A stretch of DNA of 55,435 nucleotides from a virus. Lineage: Duplodnaviria > Caudoviricetes. Position 1 is the first letter of the stretch. The number at the start of each line of letters is the position of its first letter. Below the pieces are notes generated by a model. That model saw only the letters and a list, made by a program, of their open reading frames with translations, had not been told where the DNA came from and did no database searches. The position numbers and the translations under genes are program-made. This document shows, piece by piece, positions 16,155 to 52,913 of the stretch. The stretch covers positions 1-55,435 of IMG/VR virus record IMGVR_UViG_3300006919_000067; one strand, written 5' to 3'.

Positions 16155-16182
16155 ATTATATACATTTTTAATGATTCGTCAA
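16155..16182 (-). promoter_or_regulatory. Sigma70-type promoter (TTGACG-N16-TATAAT) with GAATC overlapping -35, oriented antisense to FkbM/gp4
   Basis: Minus strand TTGACGAATCATTAAAAATGTATATAAT, near-identical to the rnh promoter at 49446-49473. Confidence 0.65.
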
Positions 16183-16195
16183 CCCCTAAAATAGA

Positions 16196-16203
16196 TATAA
16201 ATA
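16196..16203 (+). promoter_or_regulatory. T4-type late promoter TATAAATA (gp2 operon)
   Basis: Exact motif 5 nt before the gp2 ATG, implying a nearly leaderless mRNA. Confidence 0.8.
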
Positions 16204-16208
16204 ACATT

Positions 16209-16793
16209 ATGGCAAACTTATTTAAAAACCTAGAAATAGAAGCATTCAGAGCAGGTATCACCCCTAGATCAAAAGAGTCTAGGGATTGGTTCCGTAAAAG
16301 GCTTTCTGGAATTAAAAAAATAAACCGTAACGAATTGATGAAAGATGAATCAATAAATCTTAAAAATAGAACTTTGGTTGGTTCTATGCAGATGTTTTTT
16401 TATGACCCCAAGCACAAAGATACGTTGCCATACTACGATAGCTTTCCATTAGCTATTGTTATTGGTCCTGCTAAAGGTGGGTTCCTTGGACTAAACCTTC
16501 ACTATTTACCGCTTCCATTAAGAGCAAAATTCTTAGATGCACTTATGGATGTTACAACCAACAACAAGTTTAACGATAGCACTAAGTTTGATATTACCTA
16601 TGATATGCTAAAAGCTTCGACTAAGATGAAATATTTTAAGCCTTGTGTGAAGCATTATTTAAGTAAACATGTAAGAAGTAGATTTGCTAGAATACCTGCA
16701 CCCGAATGGGAAATTGCAACGTTCTTACCTACTGCTGATTGGCAGAAAAGCACCCAAACCAAAGTTTGGAGAGACTCAAGGGGAATGATTTAA
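16209..16793 (+). CDS. gp2: DNA end protector gp2
   Basis: FFYDPKHKDTLPYYDSFPL, GLNLHYLP and FKPCVKHYL motifs. Confidence 0.93.
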   Translation: MANLFKNLEIEAFRAGITPRSKESRDWFRKRLSGIKKINRNELMKDESINLKNRTLVGSMQMFFYDPKHKDTLPYYDSFPLAIVIGPAKGGFLGLNLHYLPLPLRAKFLDALMDVTTNNKFNDSTKFDITYDMLKASTKMKYFKPCVKHYLSKHVRSRFARIPAPEWEIATFLPTADWQKSTQTKVWRDSRGMI

Positions 16794-17512
16794 TGGCTAG
16801 TGTCGATCAATTAAAAAGCTTAGTGTCTAGAAAAGATGGTATAGCACGTCCAAACGTATTCAGAGTTAAGCTACCATCAATCCCTGGTGCTACCTCCGAA
16901 GAAGTAAACTTGCTCTGTAAGGACGTTGTATTGCCCGGTAAGCAGGTTCTGACGAATGAACGCAGGATTGGTATGCAAATGCAAAAGGTTCCTTATGGGT
17001 ATGCCGTTACAGACATTTCTATGACCTTCCAAGTTTTAAATGATTATGGTATCCGAAAGTACTTTGATACTTGGCAAAGTCTTGCTGTAGATCAAGATGG
17101 GCAGACAGCAGGATACCTCAGAGGCAAAGAAGGATATGGAAAGCAGATTGTGATTGAACAGTTGAAGAAAGGTATTGGTCTTCCTGTTTACTCCACACCT
17201 CTTGGCATTCCTAAACTACCATCAGAAATACAGAATAGATTGCCTAAGTTTGGTCCTATTGATCTTGCACAAGGTCAGTTTGACTTGGACTTTGTGACAG
17301 GTGATGATGTAATATATTCGTGTACGTTGTTTGATGCATTCCCCACTACCATGAACGATATTCAGTTGAACAATGATGTTGATGGTGTCGTGGAGTTAAA
17401 TGTGCAGATGTCATATACAAAATGGATTCCAAATGAAGTTGAAGCTACAAGTAACGTAGAAAAGTTTTTGACAACTCAAATAGGAACAGCAATAGGAAGA
17501 GTATTTAATTAA
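16793..17512 (+). CDS. Tail tube initiator, gp54/gp19-like
   Basis: ARPNVFRV, LLCKDVVLPG, IRKYFDTWQ, LFDAFPT and LNVQMSY motifs. Start moved to the ATG overlapping the gp2 stop (TAATG). Confidence 0.8.
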   Translation: MASVDQLKSLVSRKDGIARPNVFRVKLPSIPGATSEEVNLLCKDVVLPGKQVLTNERRIGMQMQKVPYGYAVTDISMTFQVLNDYGIRKYFDTWQSLAVDQDGQTAGYLRGKEGYGKQIVIEQLKKGIGLPVYSTPLGIPKLPSEIQNRLPKFGPIDLAQGQFDLDFVTGDDVIYSCTLFDAFPTTMNDIQLNNDVDGVVELNVQMSYTKWIPNEVEATSNVEKFLTTQIGTAIGRVFN

Positions 17513-17524
17513 AGGATGAAATGA

Positions 17525-18232
17525 ATGGCACTACCTAAACTAAATGATAAACCAAAGTATGAACTTGTTATACCTTCGTCACAGCAAGCCGTTAGATTTA
17601 GACCATATCTCGTAAAGGAAGAGAAGGTCTTGATGTTAGCAATGGAGAGTGAAGATCAAACACAAGTCTTTAATGCTATTGCAGACACTATTGAAGCTTG
17701 TGTCGAAGAACCAATAAGCAAAAGAGCACTGACTAGTTTTGATGTTGAATATATGTTCGTTAAGATTAGATCTAAGTCTGTGGGAGAAAATATAGAACTA
17801 AAGCCTAAATGTGAACATTGTGAAGCTGAAAATGAAGTAAAGATTATTCTTGATGATATAACTTTGGATATGCCTGATGTTGATTATGTTATAAAGTTAA
17901 ACAACGATATTAGTATTAGGATGCAGTATCCGACATACCTTAGTATTATGGATTTGGCTAGTCTTGATGTGAAGTCTAATACAGAACAAACATTTGCAAT
18001 GATTTTAAAGTGTATTGAATCTGTTATGACTGAAGATGAAAATATGCCGTTTAAGGATGAAACTTATAGTTCTCAGATGGAGTTTGTAGAGTCTTTAAGT
18101 TCTGAACAGTTTGATATGATTAGGAAGTTTATTGAGACCATGCCACAAGTGACCTATGATGCGTCATATGAATGTGTTGGGTGTCAAAAGAAAAATGAGT
18201 TAGTTTTGAAAGGTATGAATGATTTTTTTTAG
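17525..18232 (+). CDS. gp26: Baseplate hub assembly protein gp26
   Basis: MALPKL..PKYELVIPS...FRPYLVKEEKVL, FDVEYMFVKIRSKSVGE and two CxxC motifs; ends ...NDFF*. Confidence 0.9.
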   Translation: MALPKLNDKPKYELVIPSSQQAVRFRPYLVKEEKVLMLAMESEDQTQVFNAIADTIEACVEEPISKRALTSFDVEYMFVKIRSKSVGENIELKPKCEHCEAENEVKIILDDITLDMPDVDYVIKLNNDISIRMQYPTYLSIMDLASLDVKSNTEQTFAMILKCIESVMTEDENMPFKDETYSSQMEFVESLSSEQFDMIRKFIETMPQVTYDASYECVGCQKKNELVLKGMNDFF

Positions 18233-18426
18233 TATCTCTTTCCCATGATAACTTGGTGAACTACTATCAAGTTAATTTTCAGTTGATACAGAACCACAAC
18301 TATTCTTTAGATGATGTTGAAAATATGATGCCTTGGGAAAGAGAAATCTACTTAGCTATGTTGATCGATCAAATAGAAGAACAAAGAAGAGAAGCTGAAA
18401 GGCAGAAGATGAGCAATGGCAGATAA
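18223..18426 (+). CDS. gp51: gp51-like hub assembly catalyst; no ATG/SD of its own, probably translated by -1 frameshift from gp26
   Basis: Not in ORF track. The -1 frame reads FFLVSLSHDNLVNYYQVNFQLIQNHNYSLDDVENMMPWEREIYLAML...; ENMMPWEREIY is the short gp51 motif. Confidence 0.8.
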   Translation, partial: FFLVSLSHDNLVNYYQVNFQLIQNHNYSLDDVENMMPWEREIYLAMLIDQIEEQRREAERQKMSNGR

Positions 18427-20212
18427 TTTTGACAAACTTGTTAAAGCATTAGTTGAGAACAACAGATCTCAAGACGAAACAACCGATTCTTTAAATAAAC
18501 TTCATAAGACAATGGCTGATCAGTTTGTATTTATGCAACGTCAGGTAAAGGATGAGGAAGAAGCTAGAAGAGAAAAGGGTAAAGATAAAAGAAAAACTCA
18601 GGCTTTGCCTAAGAACTTAAAAGATTTGAACAAACAGTTAGGTCTTGGTGCTATTGGTGGATTAACAGGGATTTTGCTACCACTTACAGCAGGATTAGCG
18701 TCATTAAATCTTGCCATGGAAGGTTTGAGGGGATGGGAACTTAAAGCTATTAAGAACCTTAAAGTGTTAGATACTTTTGGAGATATTGCTCAGAAAGGCG
18801 CAATAGCTATCAAGGACAACTTATTGCGCTTAGTATTTGGTATTGGCCCAAGTGGATTACTACTTGAGGGGCAAGGGAAAAAGGGTGATTTGACTAAAGT
18901 TTTGACGGTTAATGAGGCTGTTCAGAGAAGAATAAACAATATAAGAACTTCTTTTTTAAATATGTTTGGAATTGGTGCAGATGGTAGACCCATACAATCC
19001 CCAAACAAAGGATTTAAAAAATCTTTCTCAGGCTCTGTGATCACAAAAGCAACCGATGCAATAGGAACTTTACTAAGCCCAATAGCGGATGTATCAAAAG
19101 CTATTACTGGATACATGGGTGGTGGCGGTAAGGCTTTATTTAATTGGATAGGAACTTTAGCCAAAGGCTCTGCTGGATGGTTAAGTGTTATAGGTAAAAT
19201 ACTAAAACCTATTGGGTTTATATTTTCTATAAAGGCCGCATACGATGATTTTGTGACTAGTGATAAAACTTCTCTATTAGAAAAAAGCACTGATGCTATA
19301 GGAGCCTTCTTTGGAGACTTTATTGGTGCTCCTATTGAATTACTAAAAGATTTACTTTCAGGGGCATTCAAGCTTGTAGGATGGAATGATGAGGCTAAAA
19401 CACTTGATAATATTGATCTTCAAAAAGGAATCACTGAAGCTTTCCAAGCAGTGTTAGATATCCCAAGAGAGTTGTTCAATTGGGTAGGAACTTTGTTTAG
19501 TGATCCTGCAAAAGCTGGTCAAATGGCTTGGAATACATTCTTAGCAGGATTAGGGCTTGCCGCTGATACCTACAGTACACTTGTAGATATAATGCTCTGG
19601 CCTGTCAATAAATTCTTCGGTTGGATTGGAGAATTGTTAGGGTGGAAAGATCCAGATAGCGAAGATATGGATATTAGAGCAACAGTTACTGGTTGGGTAA
19701 CAGACTTCTGGAATTTTCTTACAGGGTTTTTACCGAATATTAGTCAAATAGCATCCGACTTAACTACGTCTATTACAGCCATGTTACCTGATTGGTTGAA
19801 GGATAGTTTGGGATTAGGAACAGATTCGATTGAAGAAGATGCCGCCAATAAATTGAAACAACAGGGTTTGATAAAACAAATATTACAAGCTGATCTTAAT
19901 CAGGATGGTATTTTAACTAAACTAGAAGCTGAGAAATTTGGACAGCAGGGCATGGGTGCGGCTGATTCTTTGGCAGCATCGATAAATGCCTTGAATACTT
20001 TAAGAGGTGGTACATTAGGATCTTCTGCAGAGTTGATGAAGAATGGTCAAATGGTTATTATAAACAACGTTGATGCTTCTACAAACTCAGGTGATACCAC
20101 TTCAGTTTCTAATAGTAATGCCGGCGCAGGAAGCAGCGCATTGAGTGCTATGGATTTGATGTACTTCAGGCGAGAGATGAAGGATAATATGATACACAAC
20201 CCTAGAAGATAA
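18416..20212 (+). CDS. Tape-measure-like protein (gp29 position)
   Basis: 598 aa, helical Gly/Ala/Leu-rich with periodic W/F; follows tube initiator-gp26-gp51; size similar to T4 gp29. Confidence 0.6.
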   Translation: MADNFDKLVKALVENNRSQDETTDSLNKLHKTMADQFVFMQRQVKDEEEARREKGKDKRKTQALPKNLKDLNKQLGLGAIGGLTGILLPLTAGLASLNLAMEGLRGWELKAIKNLKVLDTFGDIAQKGAIAIKDNLLRLVFGIGPSGLLLEGQGKKGDLTKVLTVNEAVQRRINNIRTSFLNMFGIGADGRPIQSPNKGFKKSFSGSVITKATDAIGTLLSPIADVSKAITGYMGGGGKALFNWIGTLAKGSAGWLSVIGKILKPIGFIFSIKAAYDDFVTSDKTSLLEKSTDAIGAFFGDFIGAPIELLKDLLSGAFKLVGWNDEAKTLDNIDLQKGITEAFQAVLDIPRELFNWVGTLFSDPAKAGQMAWNTFLAGLGLAADTYSTLVDIMLWPVNKFFGWIGELLGWKDPDSEDMDIRATVTGWVTDFWNFLTGFLPNISQIASDLTTSITAMLPDWLKDSLGLGTDSIEEDAANKLKQQGLIKQILQADLNQDGILTKLEAEKFGQQGMGAADSLAASINALNTLRGGTLGSSAELMKNGQMVIINNVDASTNSGDTTSVSNSNAGAGSSALSAMDLMYFRREMKDNMIHNPRR

Positions 20213-20317: not shown

Positions 20318-21235
20318 TTAGCCTTCTGCAGCAAGTTTAGCAAAGTACTGCATCGTATCGTCCTCTTCCATTGAGGACTCTGCAGTAGCCGCTACAGGCG
20401 CAGGAGTAGATGCAGCAACAGGTGCCGCTTTTGTTGTAGGCTCATCCCATGGAATGTTGTTATCCAAAGCTTCTACTTGTTTACGTGTAGCAGGAGTTGA
20501 TTCTCCCAACACAATCGCTAAACGAGCCTTTAGCTCATCATAGGATTTGTAGTTCTTTGGATCTGTCCATTCTGACATATCATGTTGCTTGTTATAGATA
20601 GCCTCTAGATCATCATCACTACCTGCCATAGCAGATGGTGACTTGAATGAAGAAGCATCATAGTTGATGTAGCCTTCAACCTTACGGATCTTTACCGTAA
20701 AGTCTGCACCCTTCCACATGTCAAATGGATTGATAGGTGCTTCATCAGGAAACTGTGGTTGCATAGTATCCATGATTTTATCAAAGATCTTCTTACCAAA
20801 ACGATACAGCTTGACCTGCCCTTCGTTCTCAGGGTTCGATGGATCAGAAATAATCAGAACGTTTGCGACATAACGTAGATTACGCTTACGCTCACGTACT
20901 GTTGCTTTGGCTTCATCAGAGCCATCTTCGTTCCACAAACGTGAGTTTGCTTCTGCCAATGGATCAGGCATACTGATAGAAGTAAGAGACTTCTCTACAT
21001 ACCACTGACCTGTTGGCCCCTTGAAGAAGTGATCCCAATAGCGTACCCATGGAGTAGGCGCATCAGCCGCTCCCGGTAAGAAACGAATAACAGCATAGCC
21101 GTTACCTGCTTTATCTCTAGTGGGTTGCCAGAAACGTTCATCATTACGATTTTCCGTTTTCTGTTCACCGCCTGATGCAGCCTGTACTAGTGCTGACAAA
21201 TCGGTGCGGCGGTTCTTTAGTTCTGCGAATGACAT
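20318..21235 (-). CDS. gp32: Single-stranded DNA-binding protein gp32
   Basis: DERFWQP..DKAGNGYAVIRFLP, FGKKIFDKI, NYDASSF and an acidic C-terminal tail ending YFAKLA. Confidence 0.96.
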   Translation of the reverse strand: MSFAELKNRRTDLSALVQAASGGEQKTENRNDERFWQPTRDKAGNGYAVIRFLPGAADAPTPWVRYWDHFFKGPTGQWYVEKSLTSISMPDPLAEANSRLWNEDGSDEAKATVRERKRNLRYVANVLIISDPSNPENEGQVKLYRFGKKIFDKIMDTMQPQFPDEAPINPFDMWKGADFTVKIRKVEGYINYDASSFKSPSAMAGSDDDLEAIYNKQHDMSEWTDPKNYKSYDELKARLAIVLGESTPATRKQVEALDNNIPWDEPTTKAAPVAASTPAPVAATAESSMEEDDTMQYFAKLAAEG

Positions 21236-21287
21236 ATTTGTATTTCTCCGTATCTTAATATGTATTATTGTATTTCTTGTTATCCAC

Positions 21288-21323
21288 GATTCTCATTATA
21301 TAGAAGTATTTATATAATGTCAA
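21288..21323 (-). promoter_or_regulatory. Composite gp32 promoter: perfect TTGACA-N17-TATAAT with an embedded late TATAAATA (21307-21314) and a GANTC just downstream
   Basis: Minus strand TTGACATTATATAAATACTTCTATATAATGAGAATC. Confidence 0.85.
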
Positions 21324-21868
21324 GTTCTTTTATATATCCATGCAACTAAAACTTCTCTGTTACCCTGTAGAACTTTGTTCACCTGATGATCTCTAAAAGA
21401 TGTAAAGAATATTGTTTCACCGACATCTAAACTTACATTATGCCCTATGTTGTACTGATCCCATATAATAAAATCTCCACCTCGTAAATCATCAGACTTA
21501 CTAATGATGGTTGATGTAGAAAATACTCTACCATTAGGATCACGTTCTCCATCTATTTTTATATGGTCATGATGTCTTACAAAGTGATCGCCTTCTCCGT
21601 ATTTCAAATAGTTAAACTCTTTAACAATATAATCAGCAGGATTTAAAGTGCTATCCCAAATTGAAATCATGTCTGTTAAAGATTTGGTTATTTCTGGATA
21701 ATGGTCTGGGTTAATATTATTTTTATATTTAGTTGACCTAGCAGATTTATCTATTTTCGATTTATTATCTCTATAAACTCCGGCGAGACTAAAAGAAGAT
21801 TTATCATCTCTCATATCGTATAAAGATTCGATGTTTAAATCTTTTCTTTTTATATAAAGCTTATTCAT
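21320..21868 (-). CDS. 2OG-Fe(II) oxygenase (prolyl-4-hydroxylase-like)
   Basis: KYGEGDHFVRHHD (HxD), RVFS, GGDF and HQV..V..GNREVLVAW motifs. Confidence 0.85.
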   Translation of the reverse strand: MNKLYIKRKDLNIESLYDMRDDKSSFSLAGVYRDNKSKIDKSARSTKYKNNINPDHYPEITKSLTDMISIWDSTLNPADYIVKEFNYLKYGEGDHFVRHHDHIKIDGERDPNGRVFSTSTIISKSDDLRGGDFIIWDQYNIGHNVSLDVGETIFFTSFRDHQVNKVLQGNREVLVAWIYKRT

Positions 21869-22098
21869 TAGTCTACAGGCAACATATTCTGTCTTGGTAA
21901 ATAGTTCAGATTCATTGCTTCAGCCTCAAGCTTATCTTTTATTGTCGGTGAGATGAACTTACGTACATCTTCTAGATCTACTTCTATATCACTGCAAATA
22001 TGAATAACAGCATCCATGTAAGATGACCTATGATTTTTTACTGTTTTTTCTACTAGCATTGTGAACTTCGTTTTTGTTAGAAATGTTTCTTCCTGCAT
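21868..22098 (-). CDS. gp33: Late-transcription coactivator gp33
   Basis: SYMDAVIHIC...ISPTIKDKLEAEAMNLNYLPR motif. Start trimmed to MQEETFLTK. Confidence 0.88.
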   Translation of the reverse strand: MQEETFLTKTKFTMLVEKTVKNHRSSYMDAVIHICSDIEVDLEDVRKFISPTIKDKLEAEAMNLNYLPRQNMLPVD

Positions 22099-22555
22099 TA
22101 TCCTCGTCTGCCAATTCTTGTGTGTATTTACCGCCGATATCAGGATACCATACCCCGACTGTTCTTTTAGGAGTTCCATCAGGATAATATGCCATTGCCA
22201 CACACTTATACCCTACAGCATGTTGTCTCTCAGATCCCCATCTACTATCAGAATATATTCCAGTTCTCAGATAGTTTTGTAGGTTAGCTAAGTAAACCTC
22301 TTCAAGTGTGTATGCTGCTCTCTCTTTTGCATCCTTTGAGTTTTTCCATTTTCTCATGGACTGCATTTTAAGTTTAGTATTATTAATCCAACCTCGCACA
22401 CGTGGTGGAGCAAATGGATCTGTGTCAGGCAGGTTTCGAATAGACGCATCTATAGACAGTTGCTTAGATGGTGCCTTTGCTTCTCTTGCCTTGGCTAAAC
22501 GTTCACGCAACTCTTGACGTTTCTCTTCTGAAAGCTGTCGTTTTTTTCTTGGCAT
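22028..22555 (-). CDS. Conserved hypothetical phage protein (basic N-terminus)
   Basis: SD GGAG and a sigma70 promoter precede MPRKKRQ; contains ERLAKAREAK and CVAMAYYPDGTPKRTVG. Confidence 0.7.
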   Translation of the reverse strand: MPRKKRQLSEEKRQELRERLAKAREAKAPSKQLSIDASIRNLPDTDPFAPPRVRGWINNTKLKMQSMRKWKNSKDAKERAAYTLEEVYLANLQNYLRTGIYSDSRWGSERQHAVGYKCVAMAYYPDGTPKRTVGVWYPDIGGKYTQELADEDNAGRNISNKNEVHNASRKNSKKS

Positions 22556-22574: not shown

Positions 22575-22603
22575 ATAATATCAGAAATATTAGGTAGTGT
22601 CAA
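22575..22603 (-). promoter_or_regulatory. Sigma70-type promoter TTGACA-N17-TATTAT
   Basis: Minus strand TTGACACTACCTAATATTTCTGATATTAT. Confidence 0.7.
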
Positions 22604-23718: not shown

Positions 23719-23878
23719 TATCCTCTAATCGATTCTTGAAGAGTATAACCTCTTCTGTATCTAATGTCAACTCTGTTTTTTTACATTTGTTAACAAACTC
23801 ACGTAGGGTCCAAAACCCCATACCATTATTGACAACACTATAGTGCTTGTCTTTATATCGATCATTCTTATAAATCAC
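23690..23878 (-). CDS. Hypothetical protein
   Basis: ORF in a tightly packed minus-strand run. Confidence 0.55.
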   Translation of the reverse strand: MIYKNDRYKDKHYSVVNNGMGFWTLREFVNKCKKTELTLDTEEVILFKNRLEDNGWYEYIRS

Positions 23879-24637: not shown

Positions 24638-24673
24638 TACGAATCATTCCTTCTATCTACACTACCTTTTTAA

Positions 24674-24681
24674 TATAAATA
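24674..24681 (+). promoter_or_regulatory. Late promoter TATAAATA for the + strand GT25 gene, nested in a weaker divergent sigma70 promoter (TTGACA at 24690-24695, minus strand)
   Basis: Exact late motif; the minus-strand -10 (TAAAAA) is poor. Confidence 0.65.
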
Positions 24682-24688
24682 GAGGTAA

Positions 24689-25351
24689 ATGTCAACCCTT
24701 AAAATGGATGTGAATATGTTTAAAACGATAATGATTAGAATTCCTAACAATCCAGTTTCAGAGCGTTATGCCCAGAAAGCTAGTGCTTCTTGGGAAGGAT
24801 TTAATCTTAGATATTATGACGCTATTACTCCTGAGACTTTATCAGCACAATCTGGTTTGACATTCGGAAAAAGAGGTAACGATAGAGAACTAACTGATAC
24901 TGAAAAGGCTTGTTTCTATAGTCAATACAATCTATGGAAAAAATGTGCTGCTGAGAATGTTCCTATATTAATATTAGAACATGATGCATGGTTACAAAAA
25001 CCTTCTGCTATCAACTTTAATCCTGATCTGCAAGTTCAGTTTTTTGGTCAACATGCCATGGAAGCAGTTATGTTTCATCCTCATTTTGCAAAAAGAATAT
25101 TAAATCACGTTGCAAAACATCCTGTGTCAGGTCCAATGACATTAGTTGATGGATTGTTAGGATACTTTCACAGACAAGAACAAAGTAGGTATGGTATCCC
25201 ACACGCTAGGTATATGGGTAAACATGCTCCTGTCCATTCGCTAATAGATCCAAATATTGGAACCACTGTGCAACATCCATCAGGAACAACAGTAGATAGA
25301 TTAAAAAAAGATAAAGATTTGTTTAGATTAGTTGACCTTAATAATATTTAG
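24689..25351 (+). CDS. GT25-like glycosyltransferase (true start possibly 24716)
   Basis: YDAITP, EKACFYSQYNLWKKC and ILILEHDA motifs, shared with the paralogs at 36-43 kb. Confidence 0.75.
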   Translation: MSTLKMDVNMFKTIMIRIPNNPVSERYAQKASASWEGFNLRYYDAITPETLSAQSGLTFGKRGNDRELTDTEKACFYSQYNLWKKCAAENVPILILEHDAWLQKPSAINFNPDLQVQFFGQHAMEAVMFHPHFAKRILNHVAKHPVSGPMTLVDGLLGYFHRQEQSRYGIPHARYMGKHAPVHSLIDPNIGTTVQHPSGTTVDRLKKDKDLFRLVDLNNI

Positions 25352-26751: not shown

Positions 26752-26804
26752 GAATCTCTCTCTTGTTACATATACAATCTAACAAAAGTTTATCTTAATG
26801 TCAA
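26752..26804 (-). promoter_or_regulatory. Early sigma70 promoter TTGACA-N17-TAGATT; GATTC between SD and ATG
   Basis: TTGACATTAAGATAAACTTTTGTTAGATTGTATATGTAACAAGAGAGAGATTCGTAATG; leader shared with the 35424-35475 unit. Confidence 0.75.
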
Positions 26805-26813: not shown

Positions 26814-27212
26814 TTAGTAGGTGATAACTTTATTTGGCGTTTTGAAGTTTTTCTTACGCATGATTGTTTTCATTACAACGTCAAACTCATCCTTACGTTG
26901 ATCATAGGTAACTGCAACAGGAATGTTCAGATCTTTCTGAATGTCTTTTACCACTGCTTCAGCACCTGCGATACCCTTCAGAGACTTACCCTGCTTTGCA
27001 TAGATCTTCTTAATAAACTCAGCAAGCTCTTTCATGGTAATACATGGAGTGTTGCGTTCATCACTCATGCGATCTGCGAAGTGACGTGTGAAGTTAAAAT
27101 CAATATTAAACTTCTTGAATAGTTGATCAACAATCTTCTCAAACTGTTTGATCTGCTTCATACCTACAAGGTCACACTGTGCTTCCTGTAAGTGTTGTTT
27201 AAAACTAAGCAT
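26814..27212 (-). CDS. Putative virion-internal protein, possible RelE/BECR-like nuclease fold
   Basis: Start MLSFKQHLQEA overlaps the upstream stop; contains FTRHFADRM and VVMKTIMRK motifs. Confidence 0.55.
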   Translation of the reverse strand: MLSFKQHLQEAQCDLVGMKQIKQFEKIVDQLFKKFNIDFNFTRHFADRMSDERNTPCITMKELAEFIKKIYAKQGKSLKGIAGAEAVVKDIQKDLNIPVAVTYDQRKDEFDVVMKTIMRKKNFKTPNKVITY

Positions 27213-28116
27213 CCCAAGACACTCCCTTTGGTACATACGATTTGATCTTCATGCGAAGTTCTTTGTCTAGCTTTGCAGCAGGTGTTGGCGGTTTGCCTTG
27301 TCTCTTCACATAGAAGTAGTTCGCATCTTTGACATACATTCCACCCTTACCTGATTTCACAACATCTGTGTCCACACCAACCTTGTTGAATGCGAATGCG
27401 ATATCACCATCCATGTACTTGCGTAATCCCTTACCCATGTTCACAATGTCTCCCATGGTCTGTGACGCACCTCTATGAGTGTTTACAAGGATCTCTGTGG
27501 GAACTGTGCGAGAACGTGCAAGGTTCTGCGCCTTGGCAACTTCGATATCATTCACAACCCAAACTATGTGGATGTTCTCTTTTGCGTATCCGATAGACGA
27601 TACTTGACGTGTAAGCTTCTCTAACTTCTGCAAGTCTTTTAAAGTCACATCAAATATGATGTTTGGTTTTCTCTCAGGGTCTGCAGACAAGATAGATGTA
27701 TACAAAGCTTTCAGACGTTTGTTATCAAGTTTCAAGTAGTCTCCAATAATCATATGAAGCTTACCAACATTTTCAGGATCTTTTAGATTAGCAGCAAGGT
27801 TTTTAAGATCAAAGCCAAGTTCTTTCTTCACACGTTTTTGAATAGCAGGTGTAGCAGCCGCTAGTGTCTTCAGTGCATCAACATCAAAGGTGAACCCTTC
27901 GATGCCAACCAACTTGTCTTTGACGAAACCTTTACCTGATCCTGCACCACCTGCCATGATAACAACGTTACCAAACTTAGGATATGCCTTACCGCCAAAC
28001 GTGATGAGGGCTTCCATAAGTTCATCAAACTGTTCTTCGATGTATTCTTCACGAATAGGATCAGAAACAGTTTCCCCATAAATGAGTTCGTCTAGAAATG
28101 AAGAAAAGTTTTGCAT
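27205..28116 (-). CDS. P-loop kinase (AAA_33/zeta-toxin-like) with an acidic N-terminal propeptide
   Basis: Walker A GGAGSGKG, IIFDVT, and lid-like AQNLARSRTVP. Confidence 0.75.
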   Translation of the reverse strand: MQNFSSFLDELIYGETVSDPIREEYIEEQFDELMEALITFGGKAYPKFGNVVIMAGGAGSGKGFVKDKLVGIEGFTFDVDALKTLAAATPAIQKRVKKELGFDLKNLAANLKDPENVGKLHMIIGDYLKLDNKRLKALYTSILSADPERKPNIIFDVTLKDLQKLEKLTRQVSSIGYAKENIHIVWVVNDIEVAKAQNLARSRTVPTEILVNTHRGASQTMGDIVNMGKGLRKYMDGDIAFAFNKVGVDTDVVKSGKGGMYVKDANYFYVKRQGKPPTPAAKLDKELRMKIKSYVPKGVSWDA

Positions 28117-29025: not shown

Positions 29026-29196
29026 GGTGTGGGCAGGATTTAGGAATACCTGCATCTACTCGCCTTGGACGCTCCTGTCAACTAGCTTTCGAACTACGAT
29101 GCATCTGCTAAGACAGGGGGCTACCCTCTTCTCGTATACCTTAGAGGCACGTCCACCTCTTATTCAGTCACCACATCCTCTCTCCGTCAAGAGAGG
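29026..29196 (-). ncRNA. Candidate structured non-coding RNA (~150 nt) plus a 5' hairpin
   Basis: GC-rich intergenic island with nested helices TGTGG/CCACA, GGACG/CGTCC, CCTCT/AGAGG, CCTGTC/GACAGG and GCAGG/CCTGC. Confidence 0.65.
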
Positions 29197-29201
29197 AAAA
29201 C

Positions 29202-30194
29202 TTATTTCAGTTTATCTATAGCAGATAAACCCGCATCATCTAAAGTCTTTGAACCAATAACTGCGCCATCAATAACCTCACTTTCTACTAGTGTGTTATA
29301 CTTGTCCACAATTCTTCTAGCAATAATAATATAGTCAGTGTTACCTGCACTGTTAGCGGTCCACTTATTGGCAGTTGTTTTATGGAAATAGTTTCTCATA
29401 AACTCTTTTAAACCTTTTGCCTTTCTAGCACCAAGATGTTTATCCATTAAGAAGTTTATAGCAGTCAGTGCAAAAACTAAAGATCCGTCAACATAAGATT
29501 TATCCCATTCATTTGTGTAAATCGGCTTTAAGAAATCTACAGCATTTTTTGTGTATCTTAAATTATACTTTGTGTATGCTGAACGCAGTTTCACCCACCC
29601 ACGAACTTCAATGCCATACTCTGTATCACCTAAGTTTTCTGCATAAACGCCAACGCCTATTAGAGACTCTTCAAACTTTATAGATTCTTCATCACCGTAT
29701 GCAATACCTGCTCTATACTTATCTAAGCCACTAGCATTTTTTCTGCTCATATTCAAGTCTTCAAACATTTGAGCCTCGACTTCAACACACCTCATATGAT
29801 CCCTATCAACAGGATGTTCATATAGAATACAAGGAACTTCAAACTCAAGACCTTCACCTAAGACAGACATAATAGCTTTGTGTTGACCATCTACTATAAC
29901 ATGTGTACCATTAGGGCGTTTCCAGACAACAAGAGGTTGTAGCAATCCTAGATTAACTCTCCTAGCTTTTTGAATAGTACTTTTACTAATAAATCTTTGA
30001 TATTTACGTTCACTATATAATAATCCAACAGGAAGTTTTTGATATGTACCCCCAACTCCTATTGAACCTTTATCAAACTTTATTTTTCCTGATTGTTCTA
30101 AATTGTTAGTTAGATCTTCTACACTCATAAGTGTATCGTCTTCGCTTAATCCAGAAATAAATTGACTATTGCTCATGTTGTTTATAAAGTTCAT
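29202..30194 (-). CDS. ParB/Srx-like (DGQH) domain protein
   Basis: YQR, PLVVWKRPNG..IVDGQHK and EAQMFEDLN motifs. Start trimmed to MNFINN after AAGGAG, since the ORF-track start overlaps a tRNA. Confidence 0.7.
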   Translation of the reverse strand: MNFINNMSNSQFISGLSEDDTLMSVEDLTNNLEQSGKIKFDKGSIGVGGTYQKLPVGLLYSERKYQRFISKSTIQKARRVNLGLLQPLVVWKRPNGTHVIVDGQHKAIMSVLGEGLEFEVPCILYEHPVDRDHMRCVEVEAQMFEDLNMSRKNASGLDKYRAGIAYGDEESIKFEESLIGVGVYAENLGDTEYGIEVRGWVKLRSAYTKYNLRYTKNAVDFLKPIYTNEWDKSYVDGSLVFALTAINFLMDKHLGARKAKGLKEFMRNYFHKTTANKWTANSAGNTDYIIIARRIVDKYNTLVESEVIDGAVIGSKTLDDAGLSAIDKLK

Positions 30195-30285: not shown

Positions 30286-30361
<76 letters not shown>

Positions 30362-30368
30362 GTTATTG

Positions 30369-30445
30369 TGGCGAACACGGAAGGATTCGAACCCTCGACC
30401 TAGTGCTTAGAAGGCACTTGCTCTAATCCACTGAGCTACGTGTCC
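30369..30445 (-). tRNA. tRNA-Arg(UCU)
   Basis: GGACACGTAGCTCAGTGGATTAGAGCAAGTGCCTTCTAAGCACTAGGTCGAGGGTTCGAATCCTTCCGTGTTCGCCA; encoded CCA. Confidence 0.95.
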
Positions 30446-30451
30446 ATTATA

Positions 30452-30643
30452 TTATTCAGTTGGCTTTTCAAGTTGCCAACAAACATTACCATCTCCATCT
30501 ATAAGAGCTAGTGTTCCTTCACCAGGAGGACGACAACCTTCGTCAATCATTTCCCACTGATAACCTTCTTGCTGTTGCGCATGAGAAAGAGCAAAAAACT
30601 CTTGATTATCATGAGCAAATAGTGCCAAAATTATTACTATCAT
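30452..30643 (-). CDS. Small hypothetical secreted/membrane protein
   Basis: Start trimmed to MIVIILALFA. Confidence 0.55.
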   Translation of the reverse strand: MIVIILALFAHDNQEFFALSHAQQQEGYQWEMIDEGCRPPGEGTLALIDGDGNVCWQLEKPTE

Positions 30644-32218: not shown

Positions 32219-32260
32219 TATTACAGAATCATATTAGCAGAAGTTTAACTTGATGTCAAC
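32219..32260 (-). repeat. Early promoter repeat copy 1 (TTGACA-N17-TAATAT-GATTCTGTAA)
   Basis: GTTGACATCAAGTTAAACTTCTGCTAATATGATTCTGTAATA. Confidence 0.85.
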
Positions 32261-32866: not shown

Positions 32867-32906
32867 TTACAGAATCACAGTAGCATATTCTTGACTTGAT
32901 GTCAAG
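32867..32906 (-). repeat. Early promoter repeat copy 2 (TTGACA-N17-TACTGT-GATTCTGTAA)
   Basis: CTTGACATCAAGTCAAGAATATGCTACTGTGATTCTGTAA; contains the perfect inverted repeat CTTGAC-N5-GTCAAG. Confidence 0.85.
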
Positions 32907-33334: not shown

Positions 33335-33377
33335 TATTACAGAATCAATGTAGCATTTATTTAACTTGATGTCAAGT
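33335..33377 (-). repeat. Early promoter repeat copy 3 (identical to copy 5 over 43 bp)
   Basis: ACTTGACATCAAGTTAAATAAATGCTACATTGATTCTGTAATA. Confidence 0.9.
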
Positions 33378-33950: not shown

Positions 33951-33993
33951 TATTACAGAATCACTATAACATTTATTTAACTTAATGTCAAGT
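33951..33993 (-). repeat. Early promoter repeat copy 4 (39/43 identical to copies 3 and 5)
   Basis: ACTTGACATTAAGTTAAATAAATGTTATAGTGATTCTGTAATA. Confidence 0.9.
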
Positions 33994-34390: not shown

Positions 34391-34433
34391 TATTACAGAA
34401 TCAATGTAGCATTTATTTAACTTGATGTCAAGT
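34391..34433 (-). repeat. Early promoter repeat copy 5
   Basis: Identical to 33335-33377; AT-rich UP-like tract upstream. Confidence 0.9.
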
Positions 34434-35423: not shown

Positions 35424-35475
35424 GAATCTCTTGTTGTTACATATACAGATTACACTATGGTAGCAGTGTTGTCAA
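35424..35475 (-). promoter_or_regulatory. Early sigma70 promoter TTGACA-N17-TAATCT; GATTC before the ATG
   Basis: TTGACAACACTGCTACCATAGTGTAATCTGTATATGTAACAACAAGAGATTCGCTATG. Confidence 0.75.
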
Positions 35476-46252: not shown

Positions 46253-46841
46253 TCATCTCCCTGTCAACAGCGAACTCAAAGTTACTTGATATTATAGTTT
46301 TTCTTTGATTGCTTTTAATTTGAGGTGATCTATGATTTAAAAATGTGGGAAAGAATATCATATCACCTTCTTTCACGTCAAACTGACCAAAATTTAAAAA
46401 CTCTGTGGCTTCTGTCATTTCAGGTAGTTCAACATAATATACCATTGCCCAATGAGCATTATGTCCATGCCAACCAAAGCCTGAACCTTGTAGGTACTGT
46501 TGAAACCAATATATATTTTCTCTATCGCCTTTTTCCCTATTGATATTTTTAGATCTACAATAGTTGCCAAACATCTGTTCAAGTTCACTTATAGGATCAA
46601 AAACTATATGATCCATAAGTTTACTATATGTTCTAGGAGCGTTTTTTATGTCAAAATCGTAATAATAACCTTGAGGATTCAACTGAATGTTATTAATCTC
46701 TTTCATCTTCTCAATAGATTCTAACAGTAAAGGCTTCCAATAATCGTCATGATTATCTACAGAAAAAACATAAACAAAATCTGGAAGATTATCCTTGGAG
46801 TTGTTGGTTGTCAAGTTCGTCATGATCATACTCATCGTCAA
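46215..46841 (-). CDS. 2OG-Fe(II) oxygenase-like protein
   Basis: WFQQY..GWHGH, VYYV, EGDMIFFPTFLNH and RKTIISSN motifs. Confidence 0.8.
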   Translation of the reverse strand: MTMSMIMTNLTTNNSKDNLPDFVYVFSVDNHDDYWKPLLLESIEKMKEINNIQLNPQGYYYDFDIKNAPRTYSKLMDHIVFDPISELEQMFGNYCRSKNINREKGDRENIYWFQQYLQGSGFGWHGHNAHWAMVYYVELPEMTEATEFLNFGQFDVKEGDMIFFPTFLNHRSPQIKSNQRKTIISSNFEFAVDREMIEDYGVEHFRNR

Positions 46842-47682: not shown

Positions 47683-47916
47683 TTATACGTCTATCTTACT
47701 ATCTTTGCCAGAACCAGATTTAACTTTTCGAAGAACGTCTTTCCAACCATCACCTGCCTTATTGTGAGTGGAACCATGCTGAGAAATAAACTTGGGAGTA
47801 ATCAGCTTTTGTTTCCACTCACCATTAGACAGAAGCTCTTCACGCTCTGCTAGAGATAAGATCATTTCTTTTTCTTCACTTGTAGACACATTTATCATTG
47901 TGTACGTAGGCATCAT
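47683..47916 (-). CDS. Conserved hypothetical protein (MPTY N-terminus, FmdB-like position upstream of phoH)
   Basis: MPTYT...GWKDVLRKVK; lacks the FmdB cysteines. Confidence 0.65.
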   Translation of the reverse strand: MMPTYTMINVSTSEEKEMILSLAEREELLSNGEWKQKLITPKFISQHGSTHNKAGDGWKDVLRKVKSGSGKDSKIDV

Positions 47917-47959
47917 TATAACCTTTTTTAATCAGATTGGCAACCCCAATCTTTACCTT

Positions 47960-49415: not shown

Positions 49416-49445
49416 ATACTATCCTGTCTCAAAAACCTTTAGTTT

Positions 49446-49473
49446 ATTATATACTATTTTACTGATTCGTCAA
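49446..49473 (-). promoter_or_regulatory. Sigma70-type promoter TTGACG-N16-TATAAT with GAATC overlapping -35 (rnh)
   Basis: TTGACGAATCAGTAAAATAGTATATAAT. Confidence 0.75.
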
Positions 49474-49946
49474 TACTCTTTATTCATTTTCTTCATTGCT
49501 GCCTCATAATCTTCTTGAGATACAATACCTTCTGCCAACAGTCTTTCTCTGTTTTTCATGTGTGCAGCCTGTGTATCCTCTTTAGACCCACCAAAGTAAG
49601 GAACACAGTGTCCTTCTTCGATCATGATATCAGTAACCTTACGTCCATCAGGCACACGAAAGTCTCCAAGGATACGTCCAAACTTACCCTTCATATCTTC
49701 GCCATGCTTGTTTTCTGTGGTGATTAGTTTGCCGCCATCTTTCATGAGTTCTTTCAGTCTAGCCTTTGCAGCCTCACCAAACAGATCTTCTACTCTGTCA
49801 GATGTGCGTGACTCAGGTGTATCAATGCCCATGATCCGCACTCTCTCATCTTTAAGACAAACACCAAATCCTAAATCGATATCAACATCAACCGTGTCTC
49901 CATCTAGAACCTTTATTACTGTTACGTCATATTCGTTGTGTTGCAT
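49470..49946 (-). CDS. Thermonuclease (SNase-like)
   Basis: VLDGDTVDVDIDLGF, RIMGIDTPE and GKFGRILG motifs. Confidence 0.9.
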   Translation of the reverse strand: MQHNEYDVTVIKVLDGDTVDVDIDLGFGVCLKDERVRIMGIDTPESRTSDRVEDLFGEAAKARLKELMKDGGKLITTENKHGEDMKGKFGRILGDFRVPDGRKVTDIMIEEGHCVPYFGGSKEDTQAAHMKNRERLLAEGIVSQEDYEAAMKKMNKEY

Positions 49947-50357
49947 TTATTCTTTCCCTAATATGTGTTTACGATGTATCTTTCCTCCAATAAATGCATT
50001 ATAATACTCATCAGGCTTCAGGAGAACATCTCTCTCTAGCTGATATTTCATTTCATAGTAAGAGCATAGCCCCTTTGTCTTACAAAGTTTTAAGATCTCT
50101 CTGTTAAAGTTTTCTGCGCCTTTAGTTTCCACTAACATTTTTACTTCGGTACTGCTACCATAGTATTTACGCCAATCGCTCTCAGTGCGGCTCCTAACGG
50201 CTCTCTTGCGTGTTTTAGTGACAGGTAGCTTCTTTGGCTTCCAAAAAAACTTCTTGCCAATATATTTCATTCCAGTATCTAGTTCAGTGATTTCATACAC
50301 AAATCCCTGATATTCTTCAGGTGTTTCTTCAAACACTTTACCATTATAATACCACAT
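49947..50357 (-). CDS. GIY-YIG-like endonuclease
   Basis: GFVYEIT...KYIGKK, ESDWRKYYGS and YYN motifs. Start trimmed to MWYYN. Confidence 0.75.
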   Translation of the reverse strand: MWYYNGKVFEETPEEYQGFVYEITELDTGMKYIGKKFFWKPKKLPVTKTRKRAVRSRTESDWRKYYGSSTEVKMLVETKGAENFNREILKLCKTKGLCSYYEMKYQLERDVLLKPDEYYNAFIGGKIHRKHILGKE

Positions 50358-50384
50358 AAAAAAATAGCCCTGCTGTTGCAAGGC

Positions 50385-50392
50385 TATTTATA
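50385..50392 (-). promoter_or_regulatory. T4-type late promoter TATAAATA
   Basis: Exact motif in the gap upstream of the GIY-YIG-like gene. Confidence 0.7.
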
Positions 50393-50527
50393 CTAATCTT
50401 CTACTTCTTCAAACTCTATGGGAGATCCGCACATTGGGCAGTATTGTGGAACCTCTTCGCTATCTACCACTAATACCTGCGTTTCGGTCTCACAAGCGAT
50501 ACACTCTGCCCAATATTCTTCTTCCAT
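50393..50527 (-). CDS. Small CxxC...CxxC zinc-ribbon/rubredoxin-like protein (44 aa)
   Basis: Manual translation MEEEYWAECIACETETQVLVVDSEEVPQYCPMCGSPIEFEEVED*; SD AGGAG. Confidence 0.75.
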   Translation of the reverse strand: MEEEYWAECIACETETQVLVVDSEEVPQYCPMCGSPIEFEEVED

Positions 50528-50561
50528 GTTCTCTCCTATTATTGGCTTGCTACTATATAGC

Positions 50562-52790
50562 CTAGAAGGTTATTTCACATGCGCCCCCTTGACACGCAAT
50601 AGCTCCCATAGTATCGATCTCAGTGAACCGCTTTTCATCTAGTTCTGATGAGAAGTCCACAGACTGAATATTCTGTTGTATCTTTTCCCACTTGTGAAGT
50701 AAGAACACATCTTTCAGACAATACTCAGTTTCCTTAAGATCTCCCATGAAGTAGTTATCAGCAAACTTGTTGAACCGTCTAATCCACTCAGCACGTAGGT
50801 CAGAGACTTCTCCTTGATACTCAGGTGGAGTTTGTGCAATCTGTGTTGCTTCCCATAGATCACGAAACCCTTGCTTACGAGTATCCACAATCAGACCTGA
50901 TGCAAACAAAGCAGCCTTGCCATACTTAGCAACAATCTGATCTTCTGTTAATACTTCTGTCATAGGTGCTTGGGCAAAGTCTTTATCACCCATACCTGCC
51001 AAGAAACTAATACCTGCAAAGTTGTGACGATTTTCAAACACATAGTCTTCTACTTCGTTCCACATATGAGGCAACACAGTTACAGTATTTGATACGTTGT
51101 GACGTGTCTTAGGGTTTGCACATAGCTCTACATTCGTACCTGCTTCTACCCAATTATTTTGCACAGTACTTACTTTCTCAAGTAATGCTTTACCATACAA
51201 CTCTTCACGATACAAAGATCCTTCAGGAGTGATGATTGGGAATGCTACACAGTAGTCTGTGCCATTAGCAGACCATACAGACTCTTCAACCATGTATGGA
51301 TTAGTTTTTGCCAACAACTGTCCTACCTCAGTTTCTTTGTTCAACTGAATGTGACGCAAGTAACGAGCACTATGCTCTGCATGAATACCAGAAGCAGTTT
51401 CTAATAGAACTGATGCATTACCTGATGGTTTAACACAAGTAGTACGTGCTGCAGGGTTGATACCAATCAATGCTGCAACTTCCTTGTTGACAGACTTAAC
51501 AATCTCTGCGCCTTGACGTTGAGTTTCTTCATCAAACAACACATTAGGATTATTCATCCAACCAGTTACAGACACGCCCAACAGTGCTTCACGCTCAAAG
51601 ATACGCTTGCTTGTTTCTGTTAGATATTTGAAATCAGTATAACCTGCTTGTAGTGTACCTAAGATTGCTCCTGCACGACATGCCTTAAAGAACTCATCTT
51701 GGCTTGTACACTTACCACCATTGATCTCTGTTAGGTTACATCCCTGCCAACCTGATTCTCCATCAATCTGCGGATACATGCCAATCTCAACACAAGGATT
51801 AGTCGTGATATCTCTGTCTTCGACAAAGAAAAATCCGGGCTCTCCGAACTCTTTGATCGAACCCATAATCTTTTTAAACTCTTCTCTAGTGATTTCGGAT
51901 CTGACGATAACTGCTGAATTATTGCTTCGGCCCCTTTGAGGGTTATCGATGAACCAGTTCCCTGTTTTGGCATTAATCATTTCCTCATCTTCGGGTGAGA
52001 ATAAACAGATAGTCGCACTACGTCTTACACCACCTGCTAGAACCGCATCTGCAGCATGCATGGCAATGTCATAAACCTCAATAGGCTTAAGCACATCACG
52101 CCCTGATAAAACAATAGTCTGTAGGATATGCTCAATCTTATCTAGTGCTCTACGTAGTGGTTCAGGGCCAGGGGCTTTAAATCCACCGTTGATCATGGCA
52201 CCCTTTGGACGCACTTGGTTTAAATCGAAATATACTTTACGTCCTTCCATTTCAGGAAACTGTCCACCACCCACAAAGTATGATGACATAAGCGCACCTA
52301 GCGCATCAGCCCAACCTTCAACAGAATCTTCTACGATCCAACCTTTGGCTTGCTTCTTACGTTCAGCTAAATTTGGCAACTTCTCCACATGATGCTTTTG
52401 CACAGAGAACCCTGCCCCTGCGCCACAGAGAAGCACGTAGAATAGCTCTGAAAAGAAACGTGGTCTATCGGCATAGGTTGACGTACAGTTATACATTCTC
52501 ATCATATGTTTGCGTAACTGATCTCCACCAAACTGTAGAGCACGTTGAGCACCTAGTGCATACTTTAACTTATAAAGAGATTCTGCCTCATTGATCATCT
52601 GATTAAGTTCAGGTGTCATCTTGTCTTTGTAGTAATCTCTGTGCATGTTCATAACACGACTTACAGACTCATCCCAACTCTCATAGCGTTCTTTGGTGTC
52701 ATCCCACCTACTGTATCCTTCATAAAATTTAGTTTTGGACATAAGACTTCTTGTGTCTCTATCCCTATTGTTGTTGACAAGTTTGAGCAT
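50562..52790 (-). CDS. nrdJ: Class II adenosylcobalamin-dependent ribonucleotide reductase (monomeric RTPR type)
   Basis: YNC, GGVRRSA, TNPCVEI, CNLTEIN, TCVKPSGN and C-terminal ACQGGACEI; no nrdB adjacent. Confidence 0.88.
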   Translation of the reverse strand: MLKLVNNNRDRDTRSLMSKTKFYEGYSRWDDTKERYESWDESVSRVMNMHRDYYKDKMTPELNQMINEAESLYKLKYALGAQRALQFGGDQLRKHMMRMYNCTSTYADRPRFFSELFYVLLCGAGAGFSVQKHHVEKLPNLAERKKQAKGWIVEDSVEGWADALGALMSSYFVGGGQFPEMEGRKVYFDLNQVRPKGAMINGGFKAPGPEPLRRALDKIEHILQTIVLSGRDVLKPIEVYDIAMHAADAVLAGGVRRSATICLFSPEDEEMINAKTGNWFIDNPQRGRSNNSAVIVRSEITREEFKKIMGSIKEFGEPGFFFVEDRDITTNPCVEIGMYPQIDGESGWQGCNLTEINGGKCTSQDEFFKACRAGAILGTLQAGYTDFKYLTETSKRIFEREALLGVSVTGWMNNPNVLFDEETQRQGAEIVKSVNKEVAALIGINPAARTTCVKPSGNASVLLETASGIHAEHSARYLRHIQLNKETEVGQLLAKTNPYMVEESVWSANGTDYCVAFPIITPEGSLYREELYGKALLEKVSTVQNNWVEAGTNVELCANPKTRHNVSNTVTVLPHMWNEVEDYVFENRHNFAGISFLAGMGDKDFAQAPMTEVLTEDQIVAKYGKAALFASGLIVDTRKQGFRDLWEATQIAQTPPEYQGEVSDLRAEWIRRFNKFADNYFMGDLKETEYCLKDVFLLHKWEKIQQNIQSVDFSSELDEKRFTEIDTMGAIACQGGACEITF

Positions 52791-52871
52791 CTAGCACCTC
52801 TTTAAGTAAATAGTTGTTAATACCGCTAATCCGTATGACTAGCAGTCTAATGTGTTTTTTCTGATTGGTGT

Positions 52872-52913
52872 AGTATATAGTAAAAGAAAGAATCTTGCAA
52901 CTACATATTGTAA
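52872..52913 (-). promoter_or_regulatory. nrdJ promoter TTGCAA-N17-TATACT with GATTC next to -35 and a NrdR-box-like site
   Basis: CAACTACATATTGTAA at 52898-52913 fits the NrdR core CwAyATaTwG. Confidence 0.6.

Follow-up and report, generated by a model that had tools for sequence, protein, structure and literature searches.

GA(A/T)TC sites in the early promoters of an uncultured marine T4-like phage lineage

Here we report the distribution of the short word GANTC, chiefly in its form GA(A/T)TC (GAWTC), in a 55,435-base stretch of viral DNA (hereafter the window), which is the entire IMG/VR viral record IMGVR_UViG_3300006919_000067 and has a CheckV completeness of 26%. The phage has purged GA(A/T)TC from its genes, whereas most of its early promoters retain a single copy. 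An earlier note on this DNA had described 13 sigma70-like promoter units, 12 of them with a GANTC site, and had proposed that they couple the phage to host methylation of GANTC by CcrM and to the sigma70 cofactor GcrA. We compared the window with related viral records and with six calibrator phages, and weigh what the element may be.

Genes and predicted promoters of the window

The window is a fragment of an uncultured marine T4-like myovirus, with a G+C content of 35-39%. Its gene blocks and promoter units are listed in Table 1. The gp33-like gene is followed along the map by a run of small early open reading frames (ORFs) and then two tRNA genes, and an Rfam search of the window returned nothing beyond these two tRNAs. 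The rest of the window encodes PhoH, RNase H, a class II ribonucleotide reductase and a Nol-like carbamoyltransferase.

The window holds 16 intergenic sigma70-type promoter units with predicted starts, in which a TTGACA-N16-17-TAnnnT core (9-12 of 12 matches) lies upstream of a Shine-Dalgarno (SD) sequence and a start codon. Thirteen of the 16 carry one GANTC between the -35 element and the start codon. Promoter-like matches inside ORFs (at 46267, 38811, 32015, 23034 and 7292) are without the site and were excluded from this tally. All sites listed in the earlier note lie at the positions it gave, and its units stand; its count of 12 in 13 has become 13 in 16 with the addition of three further units, one with a site and two without. 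The unit at 22575, which it took to be the only one lacking the word, does lack it, as do those at 47943-47915 and 30479-30451. The note had also described the positions of the sites as stereotyped: each individual position is correct, but they fall into several classes rather than one place.

In five repeated minus-strand promoters, TTGACA-N17-TAnnnT is immediately succeeded by GATTCTGTAA. At gp32, the promoter reads TATAAT GA GAATC, which on the plus strand is CGATTCT (21287-21293). The plus strand at the RNase H promoter site reads TGATTCG. This promoter (49473) and the one at 16182 are paralogous, including the leader AGGTYTTTGAG, and the latter is antisense to plus-strand late genes (14972-16123). 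The spacer that contains it (16155-16208) also holds a T4-type late promoter for the gp2-like gene, TATAAATA (~16192-16199, plus strand), back to back with the minus-strand sigma70 promoter. At the 24695 unit, the -35 element is overlapped by the start (24689) of a divergent gene for a family 25 glycosyltransferase (24689-25351, plus strand), the sole plus-strand gene inside the minus-strand early region. An early protein encoded at 27205-28116 (minus strand) gave a weak match to a Zeta-toxin-like or AAA_33 kinase fold (E = 9.5e-07), and the G+C-rich spacer at 29050-29205 showed no folding advantage over its shuffles (z = -0.71).

Table 1 Gene blocks and predicted promoter units of the window, with the position of the GANTC site where one is present
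Feature	Position	Strand	Content or core	GANTC site
Baseplate and tail genes	747-14982	minus		
Late block	14972-20212	plus	gp4-like, FkbM-like methyltransferase, gp2-like and gp26-like genes	
gp32	20318-21235	minus		
gp33-like coactivator	21868-22203	minus		
tRNA-Thr(TGT) and tRNA-Arg(TCT)	30286-30445	minus		
Glycosyltransferase-rich island	~35.4-45.5 kb			
Paralogue of the 49473 promoter	16155..16182	minus	TTGACGAATCA	16173-16177, overlaps -35
gp32 promoter	21295..21323	minus	perfect TTGACA-N17-TATAAT	GAATC 21288-21292, 2 nt past -10
Promoter	22575..22603	minus		none; orthologues in the 91% and 77% lineages likewise without
Promoter absent from the earlier note	23742..23770	minus		GAATC 23731-23735, centre ~+3; plus strand CGATTCT
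Promoter-like unit	24667..24695	minus	poor -10 (TAAAAA)	TGATTCG, 24641-24645, between SD and ATG
Promoter	26776..26804	minus	leader GTATATGTAACAA	AGATTCG, 26752-26756, between SD and ATG
Promoter-like unit upstream of the two tRNA genes	30451..30479	minus		none
Early promoter, repeat copy 5	32231..32259	minus		TGATTCT, 32226-32230, adjoins -10
Early promoter, repeat copy 4	32877..32905	minus	-10 is TACTGT	TGATTCT, 32872-32876, adjoins -10
Early promoter, repeat copy 3	33347..33375	minus		TGATTCT, 33342-33346, adjoins -10
Early promoter, repeat copy 2	33963..33991	minus		TGATTCT, 33958-33962, adjoins -10
Early promoter, repeat copy 1	34403..34431	minus		TGATTCT, GANTC 34398-34402, directly after -10
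Promoter, leader paralogous to the 26804 unit	35447..35475	minus		AGATTCG, 35424-35428, between SD and ATG
RNase H promoter	49446..49473	minus	TTGACGAATCA-N-TATAAT, 16-nt spacer	49464-49468, overlaps -35
Promoter-like unit	47915..47943	minus	TTGCCA-N17-TATAAT	none
Promoter-like unit upstream of ribonucleotide reductase	52872..52900	minus	TTGCAA-N17-TATACT	GATTC 52890-52894, adjoins -35 (TTGCAAGATTC)

Coding depletion, intergenic enrichment and flanks of GANTC

In a count of the kind suggested in the earlier note, made here against shuffles, GANTC is depleted in coding DNA and enriched in intergenic DNA. The whole window contains 123 copies against 197 in dinucleotide shuffles, and 100 of 100 shuffles hold at least 123. 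Coding DNA has 105 against 148.4 in synonymous-codon shuffles (z = -5.0, observed/expected (O/E) 0.71), the seventh strongest depletion among 32 palindromes tested. The intergenic set, which comprises 25 segments of at least 20 nucleotides (nt) and 2,515 nt in total, has 16 copies against 7.1 expected; exactly one GANTC is present in 16 of the 25 segments, where dinucleotide shuffles average 5.9 and none of 1000 reaches 16. Among 136 motif classes of the form abNcd, GANTC has the highest ratio of intergenic to coding density (3.2, rank 1 with curated genes).

The earlier note had allowed that the five duplicated promoters might account for the enrichment. With these collapsed to one, the density ratio is 2.7 and rank 1 is kept, and a site is present in 12 of 21 segments against a mean of 5.16 (0 of 1000 shuffles). 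Shuffling dinucleotides within each collapsed segment gave 12 observed against 6.25 for GANTC (21 of 1000 reach the observed number), 11 against 3.61 for GAWTC (1 of 1000) and 7 against 1.40 for YGAKTCK (0 of 1000). Intergenic GAWTC (uncollapsed) numbers 15 against 4.1 expected, despite the coding deficit, and a depletion extending into non-coding DNA, as restriction avoidance would leave, was not found for GAWTC in the window. GATC is neither depleted nor promoter-enriched. As a separate observation, TGNCA is over-represented in the coding DNA of the window (280 against 209 in synonymous-codon shuffles, z = +6.8).

The flanks of the sites, read on the strand whose middle base is G or T, also differ between the two kinds of DNA. 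Most of the sites were said in the earlier note to match the GcrA box YGAKTCK, and 10 of the 13 promoter sites do. This heptamer accounts for 11 of 17 intergenic and 18 of 106 coding sites in the window, and of its four copies of TGATTCG three are in promoters. In the 100 nt upstream of start codons, YGAKTCK alone is enriched (11 of 29 against a background of 14.2%), the figure for the remaining GANTC sites being 13 of 94.

If transcription starts 7 nt past the -10 element, the sites are centred at about -27 (16182 and 49473), -4 (the five repeats), -2 (gp32) and +3 (23770), with those between SD and ATG at +16 and further downstream. Promoter sites are found on both strands. An RNA-level role of GAUUC in the 5' leader was considered and rejected, because both strands are used and some sites lie upstream of the start, at the -35 edge.

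Relatives and calibrator phages

Searching IMG/VR with gp32 gave 80 loci at 55-99% identity, and the relatives are labelled here by their gp32 identity: G001 (99%, 29 kb), which is largely the same DNA as the window, G003 (91%, 27 kb) and G004 (80%, 45 kb). A gp32 of 91% identity is also carried by a 150-kb contig (P0006). All records of the site-bearing subclade are fragments, with 13-27% completeness. Metagenomes of 19 studies (seawater, estuary and freshwater-labelled) contain near-identical DNA, which describes habitat, not host. Among isolates, the closest is Phage C48C1, for which no host is recorded (24-65% protein identity over 12 of the 14 proteins compared), followed at roughly equal distance by myoviruses of Pelagibacter, Methylophilales and Synechococcus. 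With 20 kb as the query, megablast against 50,697 phage records gave matches to tRNA pieces alone, and a literature search on the name Phage C48C1 found nothing relevant.

On whole contigs, the intergenic/coding density of GANTC ranks 1 in G004, 5 in G003 and 3 in G001 among the 136 classes. G004 has 19 intergenic and 99 coding sites, and its intergenic DNA exceeds shuffles for GANTC (19 against 9.7, 2 of 1000), GAWTC (15 against 6.3, 0 of 1000) and YGAKTCK (10 against 1.9, 0 of 1000). YGAKTCK makes up 10 of 19 intergenic and 15 of 99 coding sites in G004, and 4 of 5 and 10 of 55 in G003. Six early promoters of G004 have the -10 element plus GATTCTGTAA in common and differ in their spacers. 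The coding depletion is specific to GAWTC as against GASTC in the window, G004 and G003 (Table 2).

Orthologous promoters retain a site across lineages while its position or strand changes. Upstream of gp32, GANTC is present in the three nearest lineages only: those at 99% and 80% identity have it 2 nt and 1 nt past the -10 element, respectively, and the one at 91% has it on the -35 edge; the other, more distant gp32 upstream sequences inspected have no GANTC. In four lineages, TTGACGAATC is preserved at the antisense 16182 promoter, and the site of the 23770 promoter is conserved in the 91% lineage. At the 24695 promoter, four lineages have GANTC between SD and ATG; for the 24641 site and its orthologues, the reading is TGATTCG on the sense strand (window and 91% lineage) or TGATTCT on the antisense strand (80% and 77% lineages). 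Downstream of the gp32 -10 element, at a distance of a few bases, nearly all relatives have a different conserved element, GTGGAYAA (window 21267-21295; loci L002-L081). It shares 8 of 9 bases with the reverse-complemented DnaA-box consensus, and could be an autoregulatory leader element of gp32 or a DnaA box.

This signal is restricted to a single subclade. At most loci of the window lineage and L002-L010 (L008 being an exception), intergenic density is about two to three times the coding density, and most of the more distant gp32 loci show no intergenic excess of GANTC. Among the phages compared, promoter enrichment is limited to the window subclade, and coding depletion is seen in this subclade and, of the six calibrators, in the two SAR11 phages only (Table 2). 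In one of these, HTVC008M (loci L092-L094), GANTC is reduced to 43 copies against 240 expected (18%), and none of the 43 fits YGAKTCK, of which codon shuffles predict 57 in coding DNA; the GcrA-preferred subset has been completely purged from this phage. The observation is real, specific to GANTC among 136 motifs and replicated in diverged relatives.

Table 2 GANTC in the window, two relatives and six calibrator phages. All ratios come from an automated ORF call, because of which the window has 3.76 here and 3.2 with the curated gene list.
Genome	Intergenic/coding density ratio (rank of 136)	Coding O/E, GAWTC / GASTC
Window	3.76 (1)	0.68 / 0.83
G004	2.83 (1)	0.71 / 0.95
G003	2.05 (5)	0.61 / 0.93
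HTVC008M (SAR11)	1.84 (14)	0.15 / 0.17
Mosig (SAR11)	1.08 (64)	0.72 / 0.57
Melnitz (OM43)	0.66 (102)	0.98 / 0.87
S-MbCM100 (Synechococcus)	0.85 (99)	1.12 / 1.04
C48C1 (no host on record)	0.85 (70)	1.09 / 1.09
RHph_I1_18 (Rhizobium)	1.05 (66)	1.24 / 0.98

Possible readers of the element and comparison with known systems

Other words are avoided on the same branch. Coding DNA of the window contains 84 AATT against 417 expected and no CGCG against 22, and GGCC is also depleted. In the subclade (L002-L010, L026 at 77% gp32 identity, and the G003 and G004 contigs), AATT has an O/E of 0.07-0.59; L002-L010 and L026 have zero copies of CGCG and an O/E of 0-0.44 for GGCC. This avoidance is missing in most sister lineages and in all six calibrators, and points to a host with matching restriction systems. 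AATT is rare in intergenic DNA too (1 intergenic against 86 coding copies in the window; 5 intergenic against 32 expected in G004), and the promoter excess of GAWTC is therefore unlike what restriction avoidance leaves. The presence of the GAWTC pattern and of the AATT, CGCG and GGCC avoidance on one branch fits a shift to a host with word constraints of its own.

The gene psbA is absent from ten clade records, one of them 86% complete, which makes a cyanobacterial host unlikely. Both tRNAs decode A-ending codons, which suggests that the host may be richer in G+C than the phage; this would argue against a SAR11-like host. A gp32 protein search gave 7890 relatives with uninformative names. The CtrA box TTAA-N7-TTAA does not occur in the window, and PF09114 (motA) was not found in it, in a search that had no positive control and a record 26% complete. 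PF07750 (GcrA) is present in 200 of the 301 alphaproteobacterial genomes that were sampled, two of them unpublished.

In Caulobacter, GcrA prefers YGAKTCK, with TGATTCG as the top consensus, at sites about -20 and from +2 to +30 and at almost none around -10 (Haakonsen 2015). GcrA boxes have also been placed at -30±2, -20±1 and +5 to +30, most promoters having one box, and GcrA described as a monomer tethered to sigma70 (Wu 2023). Centres at -27/-28, -22, -18, +3 and +16 here fit or nearly fit these published positions, and those of the largest class (-4 to -2) do not. We tentatively propose, as the best of the readings considered and one that is quite possible, that GAWTC in its GcrA-box form is a selected early-promoter element that reflects a GANTC or GAWTC methylation-and-reading system of the host. 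The element would be GA(A/T)TC, preferably as YGAKTCK (TGATTCG or TGATTCT), usually one per promoter, on either strand and at places ranging from the -35 edge as far as the SD-ATG spacer. Its most likely reader would be the transcription machinery of a bacterium that methylates GANTC or GAWTC with a CcrM-family enzyme. If the host is an alphaproteobacterium, its GcrA-sigma70-RNA polymerase holoenzyme, or one with an analogue of GcrA, could prefer box-bearing promoters; genes purged of the word would avoid stray recruitment of GcrA and RNA polymerase, and the word would be kept where early transcription is boosted. It is doubtful that the dependence goes further, such that early transcription needs host GcrA and senses methylation, GAWTC boxes fully methylated by CcrM on some DNA molecules firing and those on newly replicated un- or hemi-methylated phage DNA firing poorly, with the host mark as an early-to-late switch or cell-cycle gate. 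On that view, the lack of GcrA-type boxes in HTVC008M would answer an identical pressure in the opposite manner. The 'epigenetic timer' of the earlier note is pure conjecture.

Several results weigh against this proposal. The largest class of sites, next to the -10 element (centres -4 to -2; five promoters in the window and six in G004, plus gp32), lies outside the published GcrA positions, and methylated probes are bound by GcrA just 1.4- to 1.7-fold better than unmethylated ones in vitro (Haakonsen 2015). In the alphaproteobacterial phages scanned in Mascolo 2022, GcrA sites gave no positional signal, and Mosig and RHph_I1_18, T4-like phages of Alphaproteobacteria, show no promoter enrichment (ratios 1.08 and 1.05). 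The gcrA and ccrM genes suggested as search targets in the earlier note did not turn up, neither PF01555 (methyltransferase) nor PF07750 being found in the window and five related viral records, one of them 86% complete. Host prediction, likewise suggested there, gave no assignment: the hints are weak, and three binned contigs in total fall into three different phyla or classes, a relative of 74% identity lying on a contig binned into a Rhodobacteraceae metagenome-assembled genome (gp32 scan of species genomes) and others in Microbacteriaceae and gammaproteobacterial bins. AATT and CGCG methylation has been reported in a marine Acidimicrobiia subclade, not in Alphaproteobacteria (Hiraoka 2022), which fits the words that the phage avoids and suggests another host. 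With G004 strictly collapsed, GANTC numbers 13 against 8.2 (66 of 1000 shuffles) and YGAKTCK 5 against 1.66 (23 of 1000), which weakens the replicate. Finally, site conservation does not convincingly separate intergenic from coding sites: between the window and G004, 7 of 10 aligned intergenic sites are conserved against 37% of control windows, four of the seven being repeats, and coding sites are also above background (24 of 45 against 35%).

The same placement beside the -10 element favours a somewhat unlikely alternative, in which the 7-bp word is bound by a sequence-specific protein unrelated to methylation, either an early or middle regulator made by the phage (such as a repressor of early promoters) or a host factor, and the match to GANTC and GcrA is coincidental. 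A protein bound at the sites would stand in the way of RNA polymerase, as they lie at the -35 edge, in the discriminator or in the early transcribed region; the module of -10 plus GATTCTGTAA is lineage-specific and missing from early promoters of distant relatives, and many early ORFs have no known family. However, a single 5-7-bp site in either orientation and at varied distances would be unusual for a dimeric operator, and no helix-turn-helix or other regulator family was detected in the 20 early-region proteins scanned. Such a protein would also leave unexplained the GAWTC-specific coding depletion and its origin on the same branch as the avoidance of AATT, CGCG and GGCC.

An explanation that we regard as unlikely is that HinfI- or TfiI-like host restriction, or palindrome avoidance, clears GAWTC from genes, whereas the promoter copies have no function and persist in conserved duplicated cassettes or are shielded by RNA polymerase. 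A host that imposes restriction-type avoidance is evident from AATT and CGCG; the coding depletion of GANTC ranks only seventh among the palindromes, 0.71 resembling AGCT (0.72) and TCGA (0.67); many promoter copies come from three paralogous cassette families; and the G004 signal is marginal after strict collapsing. A by-product should nevertheless bring intergenic counts merely to neutral expectation, and they exceed it, whereas truly avoided words are purged from intergenic DNA too. The sites move or flip between lineages yet are kept, their flanks are non-random, and the G004 repeats have the word in common despite different spacers. Chance combined with post hoc choice of a motif that happens to recur in a few related promoters is very improbable. 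The motif was indeed picked after the sequence had been viewed, and the independent promoter families are few (about 10, 7 with a site), but GANTC ranks first of 136 in two diverged lineages, no shuffle in 1000 reaches the number of site-holding segments before or after collapsing, and the YGAKTCK flank test against coding sites is independent of the choice of motif.

If the proposal that GAWTC is a GcrA-type early-promoter element is true, a lytic phage would employ an epigenetic mark of its host, and the sigma70 cofactor that goes with it, as a promoter element. As far as we know, GcrA promoters that are sensitive to methylation have been described only from alphaproteobacterial chromosomes. 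In the portions of the literature that our search covered, GANTC-bearing phage promoters are not reported, and phage work deals with CtrA boxes, phage-borne gcrA or ccrM and GANTC depletion. Coding depletion, promoter retention and GcrA-type flanks would together provide a sequence-only host signature for uncultured marine phages, and the proposal would account for the purging of GANTC by some pelagiphages even though SAR11 reportedly lacks a matching restriction enzyme.

The promoters of the window resemble the GcrA/CcrM promoters of Caulobacter crescentus in being sigma70-type, usually with one GANTC within ~40 bp of the predicted start, in their TGATTCG/YGAKTCK consensus without fixed orientation, and in having boxes both before and after the -10 element, at about -30, about -20 and downstream. 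They differ in belonging to a phage genome and in their commonest box, which adjoins the -10 element (centre ~-4), a near-empty place in Caulobacter. CcrM-bearing Alphaproteobacteria have an at least two-fold GANTC deficit and a more than 1.5-fold intergenic excess (Gonzalez 2014), and GAWTC-specific CcrM homologues with GAWTC-specific depletion are described in SAR11 and Rhizobiales (Hiraoka 2022). The window shares the overall and coding deficit, the intergenic excess and the GAWTC specificity, whereas here the pattern belongs to a lytic phage and to one subclade only. GANTC methylation has been found in marine Alphaproteobacteria and in seawater Caudovirales genomes, and about half of pelagiphage genomes are GANTC-depleted, which was discussed as possible past or strain-specific restriction (Seong 2022). 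The window subclade is likewise marine, with lineage-specific depletion, but whereas that study describes depletion alone for pelagiphages, the sites retained here are concentrated in promoters and have GcrA-type flanks. Alphaproteobacterial phages carry CtrA boxes, and phiCbK-like phages encode GcrA homologues (Mascolo 2022); if our proposal is true, expression would similarly be wired to a host cell-cycle regulator, although through another regulator and motif, and a gcrA homologue was not found in the window. Unlike T4 MotA-type middle promoters, in which an activator box at -30 takes the place of the -35 element, those of the window have an intact -35 hexamer (TTGACG) and a variable position of the word. 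At the Dam (GATC)-sensitive promoters of Mu mom and IS10, activity is set by N6-adenine methylation of a short promoter palindrome; the element described here differs from these systems in its motif and would differ in the enzyme family that methylates it.

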